A stretch of DNA of 64,000 nt, from NCBI GenBank assembly GCA_041661765.1, contig JBAZTV010000003.1, forward strand, positions 1,064 to 65,063. Reading direction: 5' to 3'. The notes under the pieces are model-generated. The model had not been told where the DNA came from, made no database searches, and saw nothing but the letters and a program-made list of their open reading frames with translations. This DNA is from Candidatus Shapirobacteria bacterium (GTDB lineage: Bacteria > Patescibacteriota > Microgenomatia > UBA12405). The position numbers and the translations under genes are program-made. Below are positions 3,799 to 64,000 of this stretch, in pieces; within the stretch, counting starts at the first letter, position 1; every line of letters begins with the position of its first letter.

Positions 3799-3808
3799 AT
3801 CTTTTAAA

Positions 3809-3845
3809 CCCTCCTTTCCTCAAGGGAGGGTAGGGTGGGTTTTTA
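3809..3845 (+). repeat. Degenerate G-rich element copy R2 (CCCTCC-loop-GGGAGGG tagGGTGGGTTTTT). On the minus strand it reads as a stem-loop plus T-run, a terminator-like structure downstream of pilin 3843..4292
   Basis: Stem CCCTCC/GGGAGG followed by GGGTTTTT. Confidence 0.5.
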
Positions 3846-5718: not shown

Positions 5719-6407
5719 TCATCACCACAACAACTAACTTGACATTTACTTAAACAATCACCGCTATCAATTGACACATAAAAACAATTATCACCACTAC
5801 AACCACCACTTCTACTTTCACAACTACCACCCACACTACCTACTAAACAGGAACTAGTATCACAATCTGGATTTATATAATTCTCATACCATACAATGTT
5901 TGGACTCGACACCCCATAGTTAACTTTATTTTTAGTTATACCAGTTAAAAGTATATCTGTTCGTATATACCAATCTTTCGGAATGTCATCATCTTCCTTG
6001 TTTTCTAAATTAGTCATCACCCTAAATTTATTTGTTTCCGCAATTACCATATAAGGATTTCCGTCTGGATCACACGGCCACGGAGACAAATATTGGGAAA
6101 AATTAATACTATTACTATGACAATTTGATTTTATATTCCAATTACTAATATCTTGCGGATAATATCCCTTATCATTAAAATATTCCTCAAAAGCCTGTTT
6201 AATTCTATTTAGATCTTTTTTCCTCTGCGAATCTCTACTCTTATTCACCGGATTAATCATCACAAAAGCTCCAATCATTATTATCGCTATCATAATAACA
6301 ATTGTCATTACTATTAAAATTTCCACCAAAGTAAAACCTAAATTACGTCGCCCTATCAAGGGAGATGTCCCGACTTGTCGGGACAGAGGGTTTATTCCTT
6401 TTTTCAT
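5709..6407 (-). CDS. Type IV pilin-like protein; true start is probably the ATG at 6407 (MKKGINPLSRQVGTSPLIGRRNLG|FTLVEIL). The 24-aa leader is encoded by repeat copy R4; very Cys-rich C-terminus
   Basis: Prepilin motif; start overlaps the pilD stop (TAATG); leader region coincides with the repeat element. Confidence 0.6.
   Translation of the reverse strand: MKKGINPLSRQVGTSPLIGRRNLGFTLVEILIVMTIVIMIAIIMIGAFVMINPVNKSRDSQRKKDLNRIKQAFEEYFNDKGYYPQDISNWNIKSNCHSNSINFSQYLSPWPCDPDGNPYMVIAETNKFRVMTNLENKEDDDIPKDWYIRTDILLTGITKNKVNYGVSSPNIVWYENYINPDCDTSSCLVGSVGGSCESRSGGCSGDNCFYVSIDSGDCLSKCQVSCCGDECL
6358..6393 (+). repeat. G-rich hairpin element copy R4 (AAGGGAGA-TGTCCCGACttGTCGGGACA-GAGGGTTTA)
   Basis: Perfect 9-bp hairpin between the conserved G-rich flanks. 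Confidence 0.75.
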
Positions 6408-7237
6408 TACTGTATTAATTTTACAATTAAATCTCCCCACCACCAAGCCACCAAAATTCCTAAAATCATAAACGGACCAAAAGGGACTTGTGTTTTCCTA
6501 TCCGCTTTTTTAAAAATCATCAATATTAACCCCAAAATTGCCCCAACAACAAAAGCCACATAAAAGGCTATTATCGTTTTAGGATATCCTAAAAACAATC
6601 CCATAAACAAAGCCAACTTAACATCTCCCATCCCCATTCCACTACCTTTAGTTATCAAATTTAAAATTAATAAAAACCCACTAGCCACCAACGCTGATAG
6701 TATTTGTTGTAAGGGCAGACCGATGTGTCTGCCCCACATATCGCCCAGCAGAAAAACAATTGCACATCCAATTAAAATTACTGTCGAAAAATCCGGCAAA
6801 ATCATATATTTTAAATCAAATACCGCACTAAAAACCAAGAAAACAATAATCAAAAAACCTAAAATTAACTGTAGTAGAGACGTTGCATGCAACGTCTCTA
6901 CGAAATTAAACCTAAAAACTAAAAAAAACAATACAAATAAAATCCCCATAACTAATTCCACAACAGGGTAGGAGAGTGGTAATTTTTTATAGCAACATTT
7001 TGTTTTACCTTTTAAAATCAACCAAGAAATCACTGGCACATTTTCATACCAATTCAATTGTCTACCACAATAATCACAAAACGATCTTTTCTCATTTATG
7101 TAGGGGCTAACCCTTGTGTCCGCCCTTTTAATTTTTAAAATTTTATAATTTACAGCCGTCCTATAAACCAACATATTCACAAAACTCCCAAAACATAAAC
7201 CCAAAACAAAAATAATAATTCCAATTAACATTTCCAT
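6407..7237 (-). CDS. pilD: Prepilin peptidase (A24 family, PilD-like) with an in-frame REP-like palindrome insertion
   Basis: N-terminal CDYCGRQ...C..KCC zinc-binding motif, multiple TM helices, GMGDVKL motif; insertion encodes VETLHATSLLQ. Confidence 0.8.
   Translation of the reverse strand: MEMLIGIIIFVLGLCFGSFVNMLVYRTAVNYKILKIKRADTRVSPYINEKRSFCDYCGRQLNWYENVPVISWLILKGKTKCCYKKLPLSYPVVELVMGILFVLFFLVFRFNFVETLHATSLLQLILGFLIIVFLVFSAVFDLKYMILPDFSTVILIGCAIVFLLGDMWGRHIGLPLQQILSALVASGFLLILNLITKGSGMGMGDVKLALFMGLFLGYPKTIIAFYVAFVVGAILGLILMIFKKADRKTQVPFGPFMILGILVAWWWGDLIVKLIQ
6874..6901 (+). repeat. REP-like palindrome GTAGAGACG-ttgcatgcaa-CGTCTCTAC, in frame inside pilD
   Basis: Perfect 9-bp stem with terminal GTAG/CTAC; same family as 15872, 33299, 41917, 41995, 63605. 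Confidence 0.8.
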
Positions 7238-7276: not shown

Positions 7277-7315
7277 AAGGGGAGATGTCCCGATTTATCG
7301 GGACAGAGAGGTTTT
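7277..7315 (+). repeat. G-rich hairpin element copy R5 (AAGGGGAGA-TGTCCCGATttATCGGGACA-GAGAGGTTTT), intergenic between pilD and pilA
   Basis: Same as R4 but with a compensatory C/G to T/A change that keeps the stem. Confidence 0.75.
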
Positions 7316-7323
7316 CTCCAATC

Positions 7324-7349
7324 AAAAACCCCGCCATCAAGCGGGGTTT
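7324..7349 (-). terminator. Rho-independent terminator hairpin AAACCCCGC-catcaa-GCGGGGTTT downstream of the major pilin gene (palindromic, could act bidirectionally)
   Basis: 9-bp GC-rich stem; T-run follows on the minus strand. Confidence 0.6.
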
Positions 7350-14083: not shown

Positions 14084-16135
14084 ATGATCAATCTTGATTC
14101 TCCCGAATTAAAAAATATTTCTCCCGAAAAATTGGGTGAACTTCTAATCGAAGCCAAAAAAGCTTACTACACCGACAGCAAGCCCATCATGGATGATCAC
14201 ACCTACGATATTCTCGAAGACATATTGCGAAAAATTAATCCTTATCATCGGATTTTTACTAAAATCGGCAGTTCCCATTTCAATAGCGGTTTTGACAAAA
14301 AAAAGCATTCCATGCCCATGGGCTCCCAAAACAAAGTCAATAAAATCGACGATCTCGTTCACTATTTTGAATTAAAGAAAGTTTTACCCCTCCTTGTCAA
14401 AGGAGGGGATAGGGGTGGATTGGTCGTTCAACCAAAATGTGACGGCATTTCCTTAGAAATTGAATATAAAAATGGTAAATTAGTTGATGCTATCACTCGC
14501 GGCGACGGCGAAATAGGAGATGTTATCACCCAAAATGTTGTCAAAATGAAAAATTTTGTCCAAGAATTCAAGGACAATTTTTCCGGCTCAGTCCGTTGCG
14601 AAATCGTAATGCTCGAAAAAGATTTTCAAAAATTAAATGAAATAATAAAAAACCGCCCTATCTCGGCCACAGGCCGATCCGCCTCTGGCGGAAAGGGAGG
14701 TGTCCCCGCCACAGCGGGGACGGAGGGTTTCTACAGTAACTCTCGCAATGCCGTCTCTGGTATCTCACAGCGCCTTGACGGCAAATTTTCTGAACTCTGT
14801 AGTCTTTATGCTGTCGACATTTATAGCCTCCCTGTCAAGGGAGGTGCCCAAAGGGCGGAGGGTTTCAAAACCGAACAAGAAAAAATTGATTTTCTAAAAC
14901 ATCATGGCTTCACTACTGTTGAAGATCTTCATTGTCAAAATTTTGACCAAATCGAAAAAATCTACCAAGAATTTTTAATTAAAAAAAGAAAAAATTATCC
15001 TTTTGAAATCGACGGTCTCGTCATTAAAATTAACGATACTGAAATACAACATCGTCTAGGTTCTAAAAATAATCGTCCCAAAGGTCAAGTGGCCTACAAA
15101 TTTCCATCTCGCTCCAGTCAAACGAGAATTATTAATATCAATTGGCAAGTTGGTCCAATGGGAACAATTACTCCTGTCGCCGAAGTCGATCCCATCGAAA
15201 TTTCCGGCGCCATCATTACCTTTGCCTCGCTGGCCAATTACGATTTAATCAAAGAAAAAAATATTAATATTAATGACATCGTTGAAATTCAAAGAAGAGG
15301 AGATGTTATCCCTCACATTGAAAACGTCATTACCAAAATTAATCCCGGCCACATCGTCGCTCCCACAGTTTGTCCTTCTTGTGGCACCAAATTAATCATC
15401 GATAATAAATTTTTGCGCTGTCCTAATATTAAAAATTGTCCTACTCAAATTCTCGGTTCTCTTAAATTATTTTGTAGCACTTTAGAAATTAAAGGTATCT
15501 CCGAAAAAACCATCGACAAACTTTATAAAGAAAAATTAATTCGCCTTCCGGGTGATTTTTATGACCTAAAAGTTTCCTATTTTGAAAAACTTTTTGGCCT
15601 TGGCCACAAATCGGGGACCAATATCATTAAAGAAATCCAAAATAAAAGAAAACTATCATTAAAACAAATTTTTGACGCCGCAATTATTCCCAACTTTAGT
15701 TCTCAACGAATTGTTCAACTGATTAATGCTGGTTTCGATACTCCTGAAAAAATTTTAAATATCACCATCGATCAGCTCGAAGCACTTCCCGGAATTCAAA
15801 TTACTTTGGCTAAAAAAATCTATCAAGGCATCCAAGACCGCCGCGATTTTATTATATCCATTCTTGCTCATGTAGAGACGCCCCGCCGGGACGTCTCTAC
15901 ATCAAACAAACTAAACAACCTATCTTTTGCCATCACCGGCGCTCTTAATAAACCCAGAAAAGAAATTGAAGATCAAATCATTTCTCTCGGTGGTCAATTA
16001 GTTTCCTCTATTTCTAAAAATACTAACTATTTGATTACTAACGAAACCGAATCCAATTCCAGTAAATTTTTAAACGCTAAAAAATTTGGAACCAAAATAA
16101 TTTCTGAATCTGATTTTGAATTATTAGCAGTCTAG
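14084..16135 (+). CDS. ligA: NAD-dependent DNA ligase LigA carrying three in-frame repeat-element insertions
   Basis: KxDG adenylation motif (KCDGISLE), Zn finger C..C...C..C, HhH and BRCT regions; insertions SATGRSASGGKGGVPATAGTEGF, PVKGGAQRAEGF and HVETPRRDVSTS. Confidence 0.85.
   Translation: MINLDSPELKNISPEKLGELLIEAKKAYYTDSKPIMDDHTYDILEDILRKINPYHRIFTKIGSSHFNSGFDKKKHSMPMGSQNKVNKIDDLVHYFELKKVLPLLVKGGDRGGLVVQPKCDGISLEIEYKNGKLVDAITRGDGEIGDVITQNVVKMKNFVQEFKDNFSGSVRCEIVMLEKDFQKLNEIIKNRPISATGRSASGGKGGVPATAGTEGFYSNSRNAVSGISQRLDGKFSELCSLYAVDIYSLPVKGGAQRAEGFKTEQEKIDFLKHHGFTTVEDLHCQNFDQIEKIYQEFLIKKRKNYPFEIDGLVIKINDTEIQHRLGSKNNRPKGQVAYKFPSRSSQTRIININWQVGPMGTITPVAEVDPIEISGAIITFASLANYDLIKEKNININDIVEIQRRGDVIPHIENVITKINPGHIVAPTVCPSCGTKLIIDNKFLRCPNIKNCPTQILGSLKLFCSTLEIKGISEKTIDKLYKEKLIRLPGDFYDLKVSYFEKLFGLGHKSGTNIIKEIQNKRKLSLKQIFDAAIIPNFSSQRIVQLINAGFDTPEKILNITIDQLEALPGIQITLAKKIYQGIQDRRDFIISILAHVETPRRDVSTSNKLNNLSFAITGALNKPRKEIEDQIISLGGQLVSSISKNTNYLITNETESNSSKFLNAKKFGTKIISESDFELLAV
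14661..14730 (+). repeat. G-rich element copy R6, long form with two hairpins (CCGCCtctGGCGG and GTCCCCGC-caca-GCGGGGAC), in frame in ligA
   Basis: Its 5' extension is homologous to R9 with a compensatory stem change. Confidence 0.75.
14827..14865 (+). repeat. G-rich element copy R7 (CCTCCCTgtcaAGGGAGGTGCCCaaaGGGCGGAGGGTTT), in frame in ligA
   Basis: Near-identical to R8. Confidence 0.75.
15872..15900 (+). repeat. REP-like palindrome GTAGAGACG-ccccgccggga-CGTCTCTAC, in frame in ligA
   Basis: 9-bp stem with GTAG/CTAC termini. Confidence 0.8.
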
Positions 16136-27976: not shown

Positions 27977-28007
27977 AAAAACCCTCCGAAATTTCGGAGG
28001 GTTTTTT
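27977..28007 (+). terminator. Rho-independent terminator AAAACCCTCCGAAAT/ATTTCGGAGGGTTTTTT
   Basis: Perfect 13-bp palindrome followed by a T-run, right after the stop of 26896..27963. Confidence 0.8.
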
Positions 28008-33298: not shown

Positions 33299-33332
33299 GT
33301 AGAGACGGTCCGAAATTTCGGACCGTCTCTAC
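33299..33332 (+). repeat. REP-like perfect 34-nt palindrome GTAGAGACGGTCCGAAATTTCGGACCGTCTCTAC, intergenic after gyrA (probably also a terminator)
   Basis: 17-bp perfect stem with GTAG/CTAC termini. Confidence 0.8.
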
Positions 33333-41552: not shown

Positions 41553-41635
41553 GTACCGAAGGAGGGACTTGAACCCCCATGATATTGCTATCACACGATT
41601 TTGAGTCGTGCGTGTCTACCATTCCACCACTCCGG
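41553..41635 (-). tRNA. tRNA-Leu (anticodon CAA), type II with long variable arm
   Basis: Manual cloverleaf on the reverse complement: acceptor GCCGGAG, anticodon stem CACGA/UCGUG with loop CUCAAAA, 16-nt variable arm, T-arm GGGGG-UUCAAGU-CCCUC. Confidence 0.75.
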
Positions 41636-41681
41636 CTTGAAAGTAAATCTATTATCTCACAACCAAAGCTATTTTTTAAGT

Positions 41682-41700
41682 TGTAGAGACCCCCTGTGGG
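41682..41700 (+). repeat. Partial REP (GTAGAGAC + CCCCtgtGGGG hairpin) at the 3' end of the RAYT gene
   Basis: Shares the GTAGAGAC head with the other REPs. Confidence 0.5.
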
Positions 41701-41916
41701 GCAATTTATAAAATTTATCTTTTTGCCAATTAATAGGATTATTGATTATATAATTTTTGATCATTAATAGTTCTTTTTCATCTTTAATGATTTGATCGTG
41801 GAAACGAGGTTGCCAAGCAAACCAAAGATTTTGATGGTTACAAATTGATTTTACTGAAGCTTTAAATAATTTTATAACTCTAGGAATAATCTGATTGGAT
41901 TTAATATTAATTTTTT

Positions 41917-41942
41917 GTAGAGACGCATTGAATGCGTCTCTT
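41917..41942 (+). repeat. REP-like palindrome GTAGAGACGCATT-ga-AATGCGTCTCT inside the RAYT gene
   Basis: 11-bp perfect stem, GTAG head. Confidence 0.8.
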
Positions 41943-41994
41943 GTATTATTATTTGTATTTTGTGTTGAATTATTGTTTGTATCCTGTGTTAGAC

Positions 41995-42019
41995 AGAGAC
42001 GCACACAGTGCGTCTCTAC
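41995..42019 (-). repeat. REP-like palindrome AGAGACGCAC-aca-GTGCGTCTCTAC (GTAG head on the minus strand), inverted relative to 41917; the two form a BIME-like doublet
   Basis: 10-bp perfect stem, CTAC tail on plus. Confidence 0.8.
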
Positions 42020-42350
42020 ATTTGTGTTAAGTGGTTGGTTTTTAATTTGAATTAATATATGCACATGGTTTGGCATAATTACCCATTCATGTAATTTAAT
42101 ATTTTTTCTTATTTTAAATGTTTTTAATAATTCAGATTTAGTAAAAATCACCACGTTTAGATAATTTCATTTTATTATCAATAATTTTTCCAAAAAAATT
42201 ATTATGGTTGTAAGTGCAGATGGTGATGAAATAATATCCAGGGGTGGAATAATTCCAATTTTGAAGACGAGAATATTTTAATTTAAATTTGTCGGCAAAT
42301 TTGGTTGGATTATCGACCACACATTATTGTAACAATTTTTACAAAATAAA

Positions 42351-42941
42351 CTATTTACCCCACTCCCATCCCAATTTATCCGGAATACTTCTGTATAGAA
42401 TACCTTTCTTTTTTGGCATTATTTGTCCTGATATTTTTTCTTTAGCTATCTTTAATAAAAACGTTTCCGAACCATTTGACTTAGGACATAAAGCCATGTC
42501 TAAATTTTTAGGATCTTTTTTAAATTCTCCAAGCAATTCACTAATAGTTTTATTATTATCTTTTGAAAAATAAATCTCTTTACTTATACTTTTAAATTCT
42601 GAATCTTCTATTAAATAGAATTCCTCATTTTTTAAACTCGGAACATAAGACAAGATATTATCTTCTGTCTTTAATAAATCCACAACAGAAAATCTGTCAT
42701 CAGATAATTCATAACTATGATGAAAATAGTTTTCTAAAAACTGATATTTTGCCAAAAGATTTTCTTTACCACCCAGTGACTTTATAATTTCTTCTTGACA
42801 TAATTTCTGAAGAGCTTTTCTTCCATTTAAATATGCAATTTTTTCATCTCTTGTTTCTACTTTATTTTCATTTTGAGATGGATTATAACCACCAAACTCA
42901 TCAATACTAACATTATAATCCATATTATTTTTTTCACTCAT
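42351..42941 (-). CDS. Hypothetical protein
   Basis: 196-aa ORF, no motifs recognised. Confidence 0.4.
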   Translation of the reverse strand: MSEKNNMDYNVSIDEFGGYNPSQNENKVETRDEKIAYLNGRKALQKLCQEEIIKSLGGKENLLAKYQFLENYFHHSYELSDDRFSVVDLLKTEDNILSYVPSLKNEEFYLIEDSEFKSISKEIYFSKDNNKTISELLGEFKKDPKNLDMALCPKSNGSETFLLKIAKEKISGQIMPKKKGILYRSIPDKLGWEWGK

Positions 42942-59100: not shown

Positions 59101-59129
59101 AACCAAAAAACCCCGCCAATGCGGGGTTT
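59101..59129 (-). terminator. Terminator hairpin AAACCCCGC-caat-GCGGGGTTT (same stem as the pilA terminator at 7324..7349)
   Basis: 9-bp GC stem; T-run on the minus strand. Confidence 0.6.
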
Positions 59130-59140
59130 AAAATTTCTCT

Positions 59141-59170
59141 CAAAAAACAAGTCCCTCTTGTCAAAGAGGG
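59141..59170 (-). terminator. Terminator hairpin CCCTCTT-gtca-AAGAGGG plus T-run, downstream of rpsR
   Basis: 7-bp stem followed by TTTTTT on the minus strand. Confidence 0.6.
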
Positions 59171-59183
59171 ATTTAGGGAGATT

Positions 59184-63116: not shown

Positions 63117-64000
63117 TCAACCGAATATCTCTTTTGCCACATCATAAATGTCTCCACCACCAGCTTTGTCACCTTTATTCTCCGCCAACTGATCACTAAC
63201 GCATTCCATTGGTGTATCGTTTTTAATTACTAACGGTTGTCTTTTATTTTTTGCTAAAACACATTCAAAACCCAAATCCACTCCAAAAACCTTAGAAATC
63301 CCCTCTTCCACTATTTTTCTATTTTTACTTTCTTCCAATCGATCTTTATGAAACGGATAAAAAACTTCCAACAATAAAATATTTCCCTTAATTGATTTTG
63401 GTTTAGTTGCTCTCAAGAACGCTTCAACTGCATAATTAAACGGTTTAACCGCCACCAACAAACTTCCCCATTTTTCCTCTATTGTTTCCAATTCCAAAGA
63501 ACAAATATGTTGTGAATCTTGCATAGATGCATTGCAAGGTGTCTCTATAATTTCTACTTCATTTACAATCTGCCTTACAGTTTCCTTTTTATCCGTTTTT
63601 TTTTGTAGAGACGCCATGCTTGGCGTCTCTACCTCAGTAATAATAATTTTTTCATCAATTTCTGATTTTTTTTTAAAATTTTCTTGACTGCGATTTGTCT
63701 CCCCAAATTCCACCACTGCCAATTCCATTGGCAATTGATCAATTTCCACATCTTTTTCAATTTTAGATGCCTTCACTAAAAGATTCATAAAAAATTCCGA
63801 TTCTTCTAAATTAACTCCACCCATTTTTTTCTCTCCAATTCCATAAAACGCCAGAATTTTTTTTTGAAAAAAAATCATTAATTTCAACCTAAAACTAGAA
63901 AAATCCACTCCGTCAGTTGCCATTTTTTCCAACTTTTCTAAAATTAACTTTATCTCTCCATTATTCAAATCTTTATCAAAATCTTCCTCATTATAACTAC
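63117..64000 (-). CDS. Partial gene (5' end off window, in frame to position 64000); possibly the C-terminal part of DnaX. Contains one intact and one degenerate in-frame REP
   Basis: Synteny with ybaB-recR; ORF-track start is a TTG and the frame stays open upstream. Confidence 0.35.
   Translation of the reverse strand, partial: SYNEEDFDKDLNNGEIKLILEKLEKMATDGVDFSSFRLKLMIFFQKKILAFYGIGEKKMGGVNLEESEFFMNLLVKASKIEKDVEIDQLPMELAVVEFGETNRSQENFKKKSEIDEKIIITEVETPSMASLQKKTDKKETVRQIVNEVEIIETPCNASMQDSQHICSLELETIEEKWGSLLVAVKPFNYAVEAFLRATKPKSIKGNILLLEVFYPFHKDRLEESKNRKIVEEGISKVFGVDLGFECVLAKNKRQPLVIKNDTPMECVSDQLAENKGDKAGGGDIYDVAKEIFG
63523..63548 (+). repeat. Degenerate REP remnant ATAGATGCATTGCAAGGTGTCTCTAT (compare the 6874 copy)
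   Basis: Loop ttgcatgcaa-like and eroded stem. Confidence 0.4.
63605..63632 (+). repeat. REP-like palindrome GTAGAGACGCCA-tgct-TGGCGTCTCTAC, in frame inside 63117..64000
   Basis: 12-bp perfect stem with GTAG/CTAC termini. Confidence 0.8.

Follow-up and report, generated by a model that had tools for sequence, protein, structure and literature searches.

A 64,000-nt stretch of DNA (hereafter the window) from a Candidatus Shapirobacteria bacterium (GenBank assembly GCA_041661765.1, contig JBAZTV010000003.1, positions 1,064 to 65,063 of the forward strand) carries a gene for a REP-associated tyrosine transposase (RAYT, or TnpA_REP), within whose coding sequence lie palindromes of the repetitive extragenic palindromic (REP) type. 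The locus is considered, with good confidence, to be a REPtron of TnpA_REP subclass 2.4 (Quentin et al., 2018, BMC Genomics 19:475, PMC6006769), equivalent to RAYT Group 4 (Bertels et al., 2017, PMC5581495), together with its cognate 28-29-nt double-foot REPs (GTAGAGACG, a variable paired core, CGTCTCTAC), the frameshifted copy of the gene having most likely been inactivated recently. The feature is real but is a known hallmark of this subclass, found here in a genome of the Candidate Phyla Radiation (CPR) and in a frameshifted gene.

The single RAYT gene is represented by two overlapping open reading frames (ORFs) on the minus strand, 42138..42320 and 41669..42154. The first, a 60-aa ORF with a GTG start, holds the N-terminal conserved motif, including YSTPGYYFITICT, and the first strand, and is ended prematurely by the frameshift at a TAA (42138-42140). 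The second, of 161 aa, holds VIMPNHVHILI and WQPRFHDQIIKDEKELLMIKNYIINNP and contains the HUH motif, the REP-encoded linker, WQ and YIINNP, so that the motifs are distributed over the two ORFs as the original prediction had them. The codons for HVH are located at 42059-42067 (PNHVH at 42059-42073), those for WQ at 41810-41815 and those for YIINNP at 41735-41752, with the catalytic Tyr codon at 41750-41752. Removal of one T gives a 216-aa fusion protein that aligns over ~95% of its length with uninterrupted orthologues of 185-243 aa.

That the two ORFs together read as a RAYT had been claimed from the letters alone, and the database comparisons agree. The fused ORF matched Pfam Y1_Tnp (2e-6, HUH part only) and the NCBIfam equivalog NF047646, REP_Tyr_transpos (E = 5.5e-15, 55.5 bits). 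Among the 3283 homologues recovered in a database search, from Shapirobacteria and others, those with names are called transposase or RayT. The best is an identical 161-aa ORF from a Candidatus Shapirobacteria metagenome-assembled genome, and the next best are the uninterrupted 185-243-aa proteins covering ~95% of the fusion, several of which are named RayT. In a 36-sequence alignment H85 and H87 (PNHVH), W169 and Q170 (WQPRFHD), and Y190, I191 and N194 (YIINNP) are invariant. A sequence profile search of the PDB returned a sole relative, the TnpA_REP structure 4ER8, and the AlphaFold model of the fusion also found 4ER8_A, the Escherichia coli TnpA_REP with a REP hairpin, as its top PDB match in Foldseek (E = 6.6e-7, probability 1.00), followed by the TnpA structures of ISDra2 and IS608. 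The similarity to HUH transposases whose absence was to have counted against the claim was thus found. The core of the model has a pLDDT (predicted local distance difference test) of 87-97, while residues 98-138, exactly the REP-encoded stretch, fall below 50; they sit between the strand formed by residues 85-92 and the next helices (129-141 and 144-162).

Two strong hairpins, both read on the minus strand, lie in this stretch. Hairpin A (41995..42020) has the coding-strand sequence TGTAGAGACGCAC-TGT-GTGCGTCTCT and encodes VETHCVRL, and hairpin B (41916..41941), AGAGACGCATT-C-AATGCGTCTCTACA, encodes RDAFNASLQ; on the plus strand they are the palindromes AGAGACGCACACAGTGCGTCTCTACA, with a 10-bp stem, and TGTAGAGACGCATTGAATGCGTCTCT, with an 11-bp stem, respectively. 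The spacer between them (41942..41994, minus strand) is AT-rich, codes for Asn, Thr and Gln and differs in length among orthologues; at this place there is also a tandem duplication of 24 nt (41941-41964 and 41965-41988, 83% identical). Hairpins and spacer together form an in-frame block of 105 nt, or 35 codons, at 41916-42020 between the HUH motif and the WQ/Tyr region, in good agreement with the roughly 40 extra residues that had been attributed to two palindromes between HUH and the C-terminal catalytic region. The third, partial palindrome that had been noticed at the 3' end of the gene is a degenerate flanking half-REP (41682..41702, not assigned to a strand; TGTAGAGACCCCCTGTGGGGC on the plus strand), which overlaps the end of the RAYT ORF and supplies a C-terminal extension, LPHRGSLQLKK, missing from most orthologues. 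GTAG or CTAC was likewise found at the palindrome ends, with the nuance that on the coding strand each hairpin has one foot only, hairpin A a 5' GTAG and hairpin B a 3' CTAC; the 3' CTAC foot of hairpin A is missing because a 27-nt in-frame deletion removed it.

The 26-nt units of hairpins A and B are mutually 88% complementary across the 53-nt spacer. As single-stranded DNA (ssDNA), the 105-nt region is predicted to fold into two local hairpins (-22.3 kcal/mol, z = -7.1 compared with shuffles), and a long hairpin of REPIN type built from both internal REPs was rejected, as the predicted fold prefers the two local ones. An Rfam scan of the whole window detected three tRNAs only and no known RNA family at the hairpins.

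Comparison with 80 loci (L001-L080) with relatives of the gene, from Shapirobacteria, other CPR, Chloroflexota, Cyanobacteria, Bacteroidota, Gammaproteobacteria, Clostridia and others, indicated that the position of the hairpins is a property of the family. Many of these loci have a GTAG...CTAC palindrome of 28-29 nt at a point some 270-340 nt inside the gene, very frequently bearing the foot GTAGAGACG, and several have further copies directly upstream and downstream of the gene. When the count was limited to the 72 loci with an uninterrupted HUH-W linker and a stem of at least 9 bp was required, a hairpin was present in the linker of 58 (81%), from many phyla, and missing from 14. Hairpin density was 4.5 per kb in the linker; elsewhere in the gene it was 0.93 per kb, and in distant flanks 0.62 per kb. 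The linker following the HUH strand is rich in gaps and variable in length among the orthologues, and the peptides VETHCVRL, VETPRGASLQ, RDAYNASLQ and CRDVLQNVST in their alignment represent one DNA palindrome read in two frames. The GTAG was counted 36 times in the VET frame, seven times in the RD frame and never in the third (xxG-TAG) frame; an argument that all frames are used was weakened accordingly, as the third makes a TAG stop and just two are possible. The cores of 56 GTAGAGAC..GTCTCTAC REPs are 12-13 nt long in 52 cases and comprise 40 distinct sequences with 94% of positions paired, which indicates that structure and size are constrained.

The 9-nt foot GTAGAGACG and the 28-29-nt unit are common to RAYT loci of CPR, Chloroflexota, Cyanobacteria, Bacteroidota and Gammaproteobacteria (for example L004, L014, L032 and L006), although the RAYT proteins that share this foot across distant phyla are just ~30-40% identical. 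Foot variants, GTAGGGAC or GTAGGGGC, were observed at other loci.

Palindromes of the same family are dispersed in the window. The foot GTAGAGACGC, allowing at most one mismatch, occurs 13 times against 0.51 expected, a count reached in none of 100 shuffles, and four full GTAGAGACG...CGTCTCTAC palindromes and one degenerate copy lie outside the RAYT gene. The expectation that GTAG palindromes occur beyond the gene therefore stood within these 64 kb. As to their clustering around it, three of the seven foot-bearing units of the window fall inside the 652-bp gene (binomial P = 3.6e-5).

Three of the four full copies outside the RAYT gene are in frame and located in interdomain linkers. The double-foot REP at 6874..6901 (GTAGAGACGTTGCATGCAACGTCTCTAC, not assigned to a strand, as are the other double-foot copies) is read as VETLHATSLL in a prepilin peptidase gene (6407..7237, minus strand), where it forms residues 113-122 of the protein, in the linker between A24_N (11-107) and Peptidase_A24 (129-237). 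The copy at 15872..15900 (GTAGAGACGCCCCGCCGGGACGTCTCTAC) is read as VETPRRDVST in LigA (14084..16135, plus strand), residues 597-606, between HhH (543-585) and BRCT (606-676). The copy at 63605..63632 (GTAGAGACGCCATGCTTGGCGTCTCTAC) is read as VETPSMASLQ in dnaX, in the linker that precedes the DnaX_C domain, and the same linker contains the degenerate REP (63522..63548, minus strand; coding strand ATAGAGACACCTTGCAATGCATCTATG), which encodes IETPCNASM. The fourth full copy, at 33299..33332, is intergenic; it is 34 nt long with a perfect 17-bp stem and starts 16 nt past the gyrA stop codon, between gyrA and a convergent gene for an XerC/D-like integrase.

At the LigA HhH-BRCT site other Shapirobacteria (L086, L087 and L088 were compared) have REPs with identical feet and different paired cores (CCCCGCCGGGA, CCAGATCTGG and CACCATGGCG). 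A fast turnover of cores at this fixed site was considered and dropped: in a rough estimate with paired changes counted once, the excess over the 17-24% divergence of the flanks was not significant, and for this reason no special diversification mechanism is claimed. In L088 an AT-rich stretch of equal length (VIIKNLSLE) occupies the site, apparently a decayed REP. In L087, a 909-nt contig from the JGI, the LigA frame ends soon past the REP, similarity to the window drops to 52% downstream, and the neighbouring genes, ribosomal L24 on the upstream side and a fragment of a D-Ala-D-Ala ligase on the downstream side, are unrelated, so that this contig looks like an assembly chimera or a break at the repeat.

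Subclass 2.4 is characterised by the motifs NH[IFV]H, WQ and YIxNNP (Table 1 of PMC6006769), a highly variable insert between β3 (HUH) and αC, double-foot REPs with 5' GT[AG]G and 3' C[TC]AC, and a median protein length of ~194 aa; in-frame REPs inside tnpA_REP between HuH and Tyr have already been reported for it (Quentin et al., 2018). The window gene agrees in all of these, with NHVH, WQ, YIINNP, a length near the median, a variable insert after β3, double-foot REPs and in-frame REPs between HuH and Tyr. It is also inherited in the manner of a housekeeping gene, as one chromosomal copy in 64 kb at a locus conserved in a relative, L082. Differences were observed in the host, a CPR bacterium (Ca. 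Shapirobacteria), no such lineage being named in the main text of the subclass description; in the frameshift and the lack of an upstream flanking REP; and in that most of the few REPs seen in the window are in frame within housekeeping genes. No relevant literature was found on RAYTs together with CPR or Patescibacteria, and a full-text literature search for the string GTAGAGACG returned papers that, judged on titles and abstracts, were all unrelated.

The internal REPs are old. L082 encodes an intact RAYT orthologue of 226 aa with 76% protein identity and shares with the window the gene order Lactamase_B_3, DnaB, RAYT, tRNA-Leu(CAA), a 221-aa membrane protein, DksA-like, LspA-like and pseudouridine synthase; the retention of the order DnaB, RAYT, tRNA-Leu(CAA) marks a conserved chromosomal position. 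Between the two loci the internal hairpins are identical at 49 of 50 nt, compared with 419 of 506 (83%) in the coding cores. The presence of the same two hairpins in a syntenic relative at 76% identity indicates vertical inheritance rather than a recent invasion. Of the proposal that the gene had been invaded by its own palindromes, the kinship of the internal hairpins with the copies dispersed in the window thus holds and the implied recency does not. L082 has a complete double-foot REP right after its RAYT stop codon, where the window has the half-copy.

The tRNA-Leu(CAA) gene of the window (41553..41636, minus strand) lies directly downstream of RAYT and, although adjacent, does not belong to the element. 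Between dnaB and RAYT the window has a 196-aa ORF (42351-42941, minus strand) without a Pfam match, which is absent from L082, where RAYT directly follows dnaB with a slight overlap. In comparison with another close relative, L083, the loop and innermost stem of hairpin A are inverted (GCACTGTGTGC against GCACACAGTGC), which is the flip expected from template switching mediated by a hairpin or cruciform.

The frameshift that had been placed near 42138-42154 is present in the deposited sequence. The two frames overlap at GGTGATTTTTACTAA; the first ends GGT GAT TTT TAC TAA and the second continues ...IFTKSELLKTFKIRKNIKLHEWVIMPNHVH. Relative to the two closest intact relatives, L082 and L083, in which the gene is in frame, the window gene has exactly one extra base, in a coding-strand T5 run at 42143-42147 on the minus strand. 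This one-base insertion leaves the gene without an intact ORF, which concerns its function and not its family origin. A second lesion-like change is the 27-nt in-frame deletion, by which one REP foot was lost, and from the sequence comparison both it and the frameshift appear specific to the window lineage. A recent, lineage-specific inactivation of this RAYT copy is accordingly the most likely explanation on the sequences at hand; among the possibilities first offered (decay, sequencing error or recoding) decay is favoured, while an error is possible and recoding very unlikely.

Several points nevertheless weigh against regarding the locus as a recently inactivated REPtron of subclass 2.4. 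The score of 55.5 bits against NF047646 is below the curated cut-off of 80 bits, which makes the protein related but places it outside the trusted range; that model appears to be tuned to proteobacterial RAYTs, and the protein is therefore named on the basis of its subclass motifs and its fold. No REP was found upstream of the gene and a degenerate half-REP alone lies downstream, leaving the picture of a gene flanked by REPs incomplete. The identical split gene is also found in a second deposited assembly, GCA_041665705.1, which is 100% identical over 6486 nt; such identity provides no independent confirmation of the frameshift, as both assemblies may stem from the same reads. Finally, every invariant family residue is retained, so that the lesion must be recent if the gene is dead.

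The last two of these points bear equally on the possibility, which is considered unlikely although it deserves some weight, that the T5 run arose from a homopolymer error during sequencing or assembly and that the true gene is an intact 216-aa RAYT, predicted to be active. The lesion is indeed a single base within a T run, and the fused protein was modelled confidently as a whole HUH domain. A run of five, on the other hand, is a short homopolymer. The long genes of the window, including GyrA (882 aa) and LigA (683 aa), are free of frameshifts, which makes a generally indel-prone assembly unlikely. The codons at the site are unusually diverged (GDF where the family has a conserved GEI), and the 27-nt deletion is a further lesion-like change in the gene.

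Some other transposases are regulated by translational frameshifting. A programmed shift in the present gene, by a +1 ribosomal slip on UUU-U or by transcriptional slippage, yielding a low and regulated level of full-length RAYT, was rejected as highly improbable: although passing from frame 1 to frame 2 needs +1 and UUU UAC permits tRNA-Phe to re-pair on UUU, none of 35 aligned orthologues needs such a shift, the two closest relatives being in frame at the site, the A site beside the slippery codon holds no stop or rare codon, a canonical slippery or stalling context is missing, and the T run is not long enough for transcriptional slippage to be efficient.

By analogy with E. coli TnpA_REP, the product of an intact gene of this kind would be an HUH/Y1 ssDNA endonuclease, encoded by one chromosomal gene, that binds the cognate double-foot REP hairpins on ssDNA by reading the GTAG foot. 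Cleavage and rejoining would proceed via the Tyr of YIINNP and a metal held by HVH, an activity by which the REPs would be maintained or spread. The surface loop that follows the HUH strand might tolerate any peptide and so offer a safe harbour, keeping REP and enzyme genetically linked. In the window genome the REPs persist as inherited hairpins, several of them as 10-codon modules in the interdomain linkers of housekeeping genes.

Whether the internal hairpins do more than occupy this loop may be asked, and their better conservation than that of the coding cores possibly leaves room for a functional role, unproven as it is. It is conceivable, if rather doubtful, that they are functional cis elements, either binding sites through which RAYT regulates its own gene or mRNA, or protected master copies that renew the genomic REPs. 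The hairpins are far better conserved than the neighbouring codons (49 of 50 nt against 83%), are found at the same place in 81% of relatives from across the phyla and keep one DNA motif in two frames (VET... and RD...), an indication that the constraint is on the nucleic acid and not on the peptide. Gene conversion among REPs, or homogenisation driven by RAYT, could give the same conservation; 14 of the 72 relatives lack a hairpin in the linker; and the insert is taken as a peripheral, probably neutral extension by Quentin et al. (2018). A wider and still more speculative version is that the REPs in the RAYT frame are a selected part of the system and not tolerated insertions, the gene keeping reference copies of the enzyme's substrate under protection and perhaps using them as an autoregulatory site too, and that in gene-dense CPR genomes the REP family survives mainly as 10-codon linker modules at fixed orthologous sites while the paired cores turn over.

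A reading of the locus as an autonomous insertion sequence of the IS200/IS605 type, with the hairpins as subterminal transposon ends, has very little to recommend it: the HUH/Y1 fold and the Pfam family are shared, but the NCBIfam IS200 model scored 17.6 bits against a cut-off of 55, the window holds one copy only, its chromosomal position is conserved in the 76%-identical relative, there is no tnpB (the neighbours being tRNA-Leu and the 196-aa ORF), the hairpins are inside the ORF instead of at the ends of an element, and the same palindromes are dispersed without any gene.

Among characterised systems, the subclass 2.4 REPtron described here resembles E. coli TnpA_REP/RayT (4ER8; Messing et al., 2012, PMC3479197; Ton-Hoang and colleagues) in its HUH/Y1 fold, its single chromosomal copy and the GTAG tetranucleotide at the foot of the hairpin, which is the recognition element in E. 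coli and by analogy may be so here. The E. coli protein, however, belongs to subclass 2.2 (DHLH/WE/YIHYNP), is only ~15% identical to the window protein and has a C-terminal extension that the latter lacks, and the E. coli REPs are single-foot, bulged and extragenic and do not occur within the gene. REPINs (Bertels & Rainey, 2011, PMC3116915) share with the internal REPs the inverted doublet, here with 26-nt arms, 88% complementarity and a 53-nt spacer, but all four other full copies in the 64-kb window are singlets and the predicted fold is that of two local hairpins. The inverted orientation of the doublet is in any case trivial, as each REP is itself palindromic.

Parallels to the copies outside the RAYT gene are the Rickettsia palindromic elements (RPEs) and the GTAG/CGTC REPs found in frame in functional genes, notably those for replication and repair, DNA ligase among them (Di Nocera et al., 2013, PMC3733652), both of which are short palindromes read in frame, as in the LigA, DnaX and prepilin peptidase linkers of the window. 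The window REPs differ from both in being compact, at ~10 codons, and in residing in a small, AT-rich CPR genome, and RPEs are longer and have no known RAYT.

With this locus, a class already described, that of domesticated HUH transposases with substrate hairpins inside their own coding sequence, gains a CPR example. It does not suggest a new mechanism. The comparison also shows that one 9-nt foot, GTAGAGACG, and one unit size of 28-29 nt recur in Shapirobacteria and as far away as Cyanobacteria, Bacteroidota and Chloroflexota. In practical terms, such REPs explain the recurrent VETxxxxSLQ, RDxxxASLQ and CRDVxxxVST peptides in CPR proteins, and metagenome assemblies appear to be broken or made chimeric by them.

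Other hairpins were also observed in the window. A second, GC-rich set of the form CCCTCC...GGAGGG is located at 3808-3831, 14387-14408, 27977-28006 and 59149-59174. The member at 14387-14408 falls within the ORF for LigA, in which the Pfam match to the adenylation domain comes in two stretches, and may represent another in-frame palindromic element or family; a Gly/Ser/Ala-rich, insertion-like segment of low complexity (rpisatgrsasggkggvpatagtegf) was also noted in the adenylation region. The palindrome at 27977-28006 and the intergenic REP at 33299-33332 have the central 14 nt TCCGAAATTTCGGA in common, with the feet AAACCC and GTAGAGACGG (one each), and are otherwise different. Two near-identical hairpins, TGTCCCGA(C/T)TT(G/A)TCGGGACA, at 6366-6385 and 7286-7305, bracket the A24 prepilin peptidase gene, and terminator-like hairpins, AAACCCCGC..GCGGGGTTT, occur at 7326-7349 and 59108-59129.

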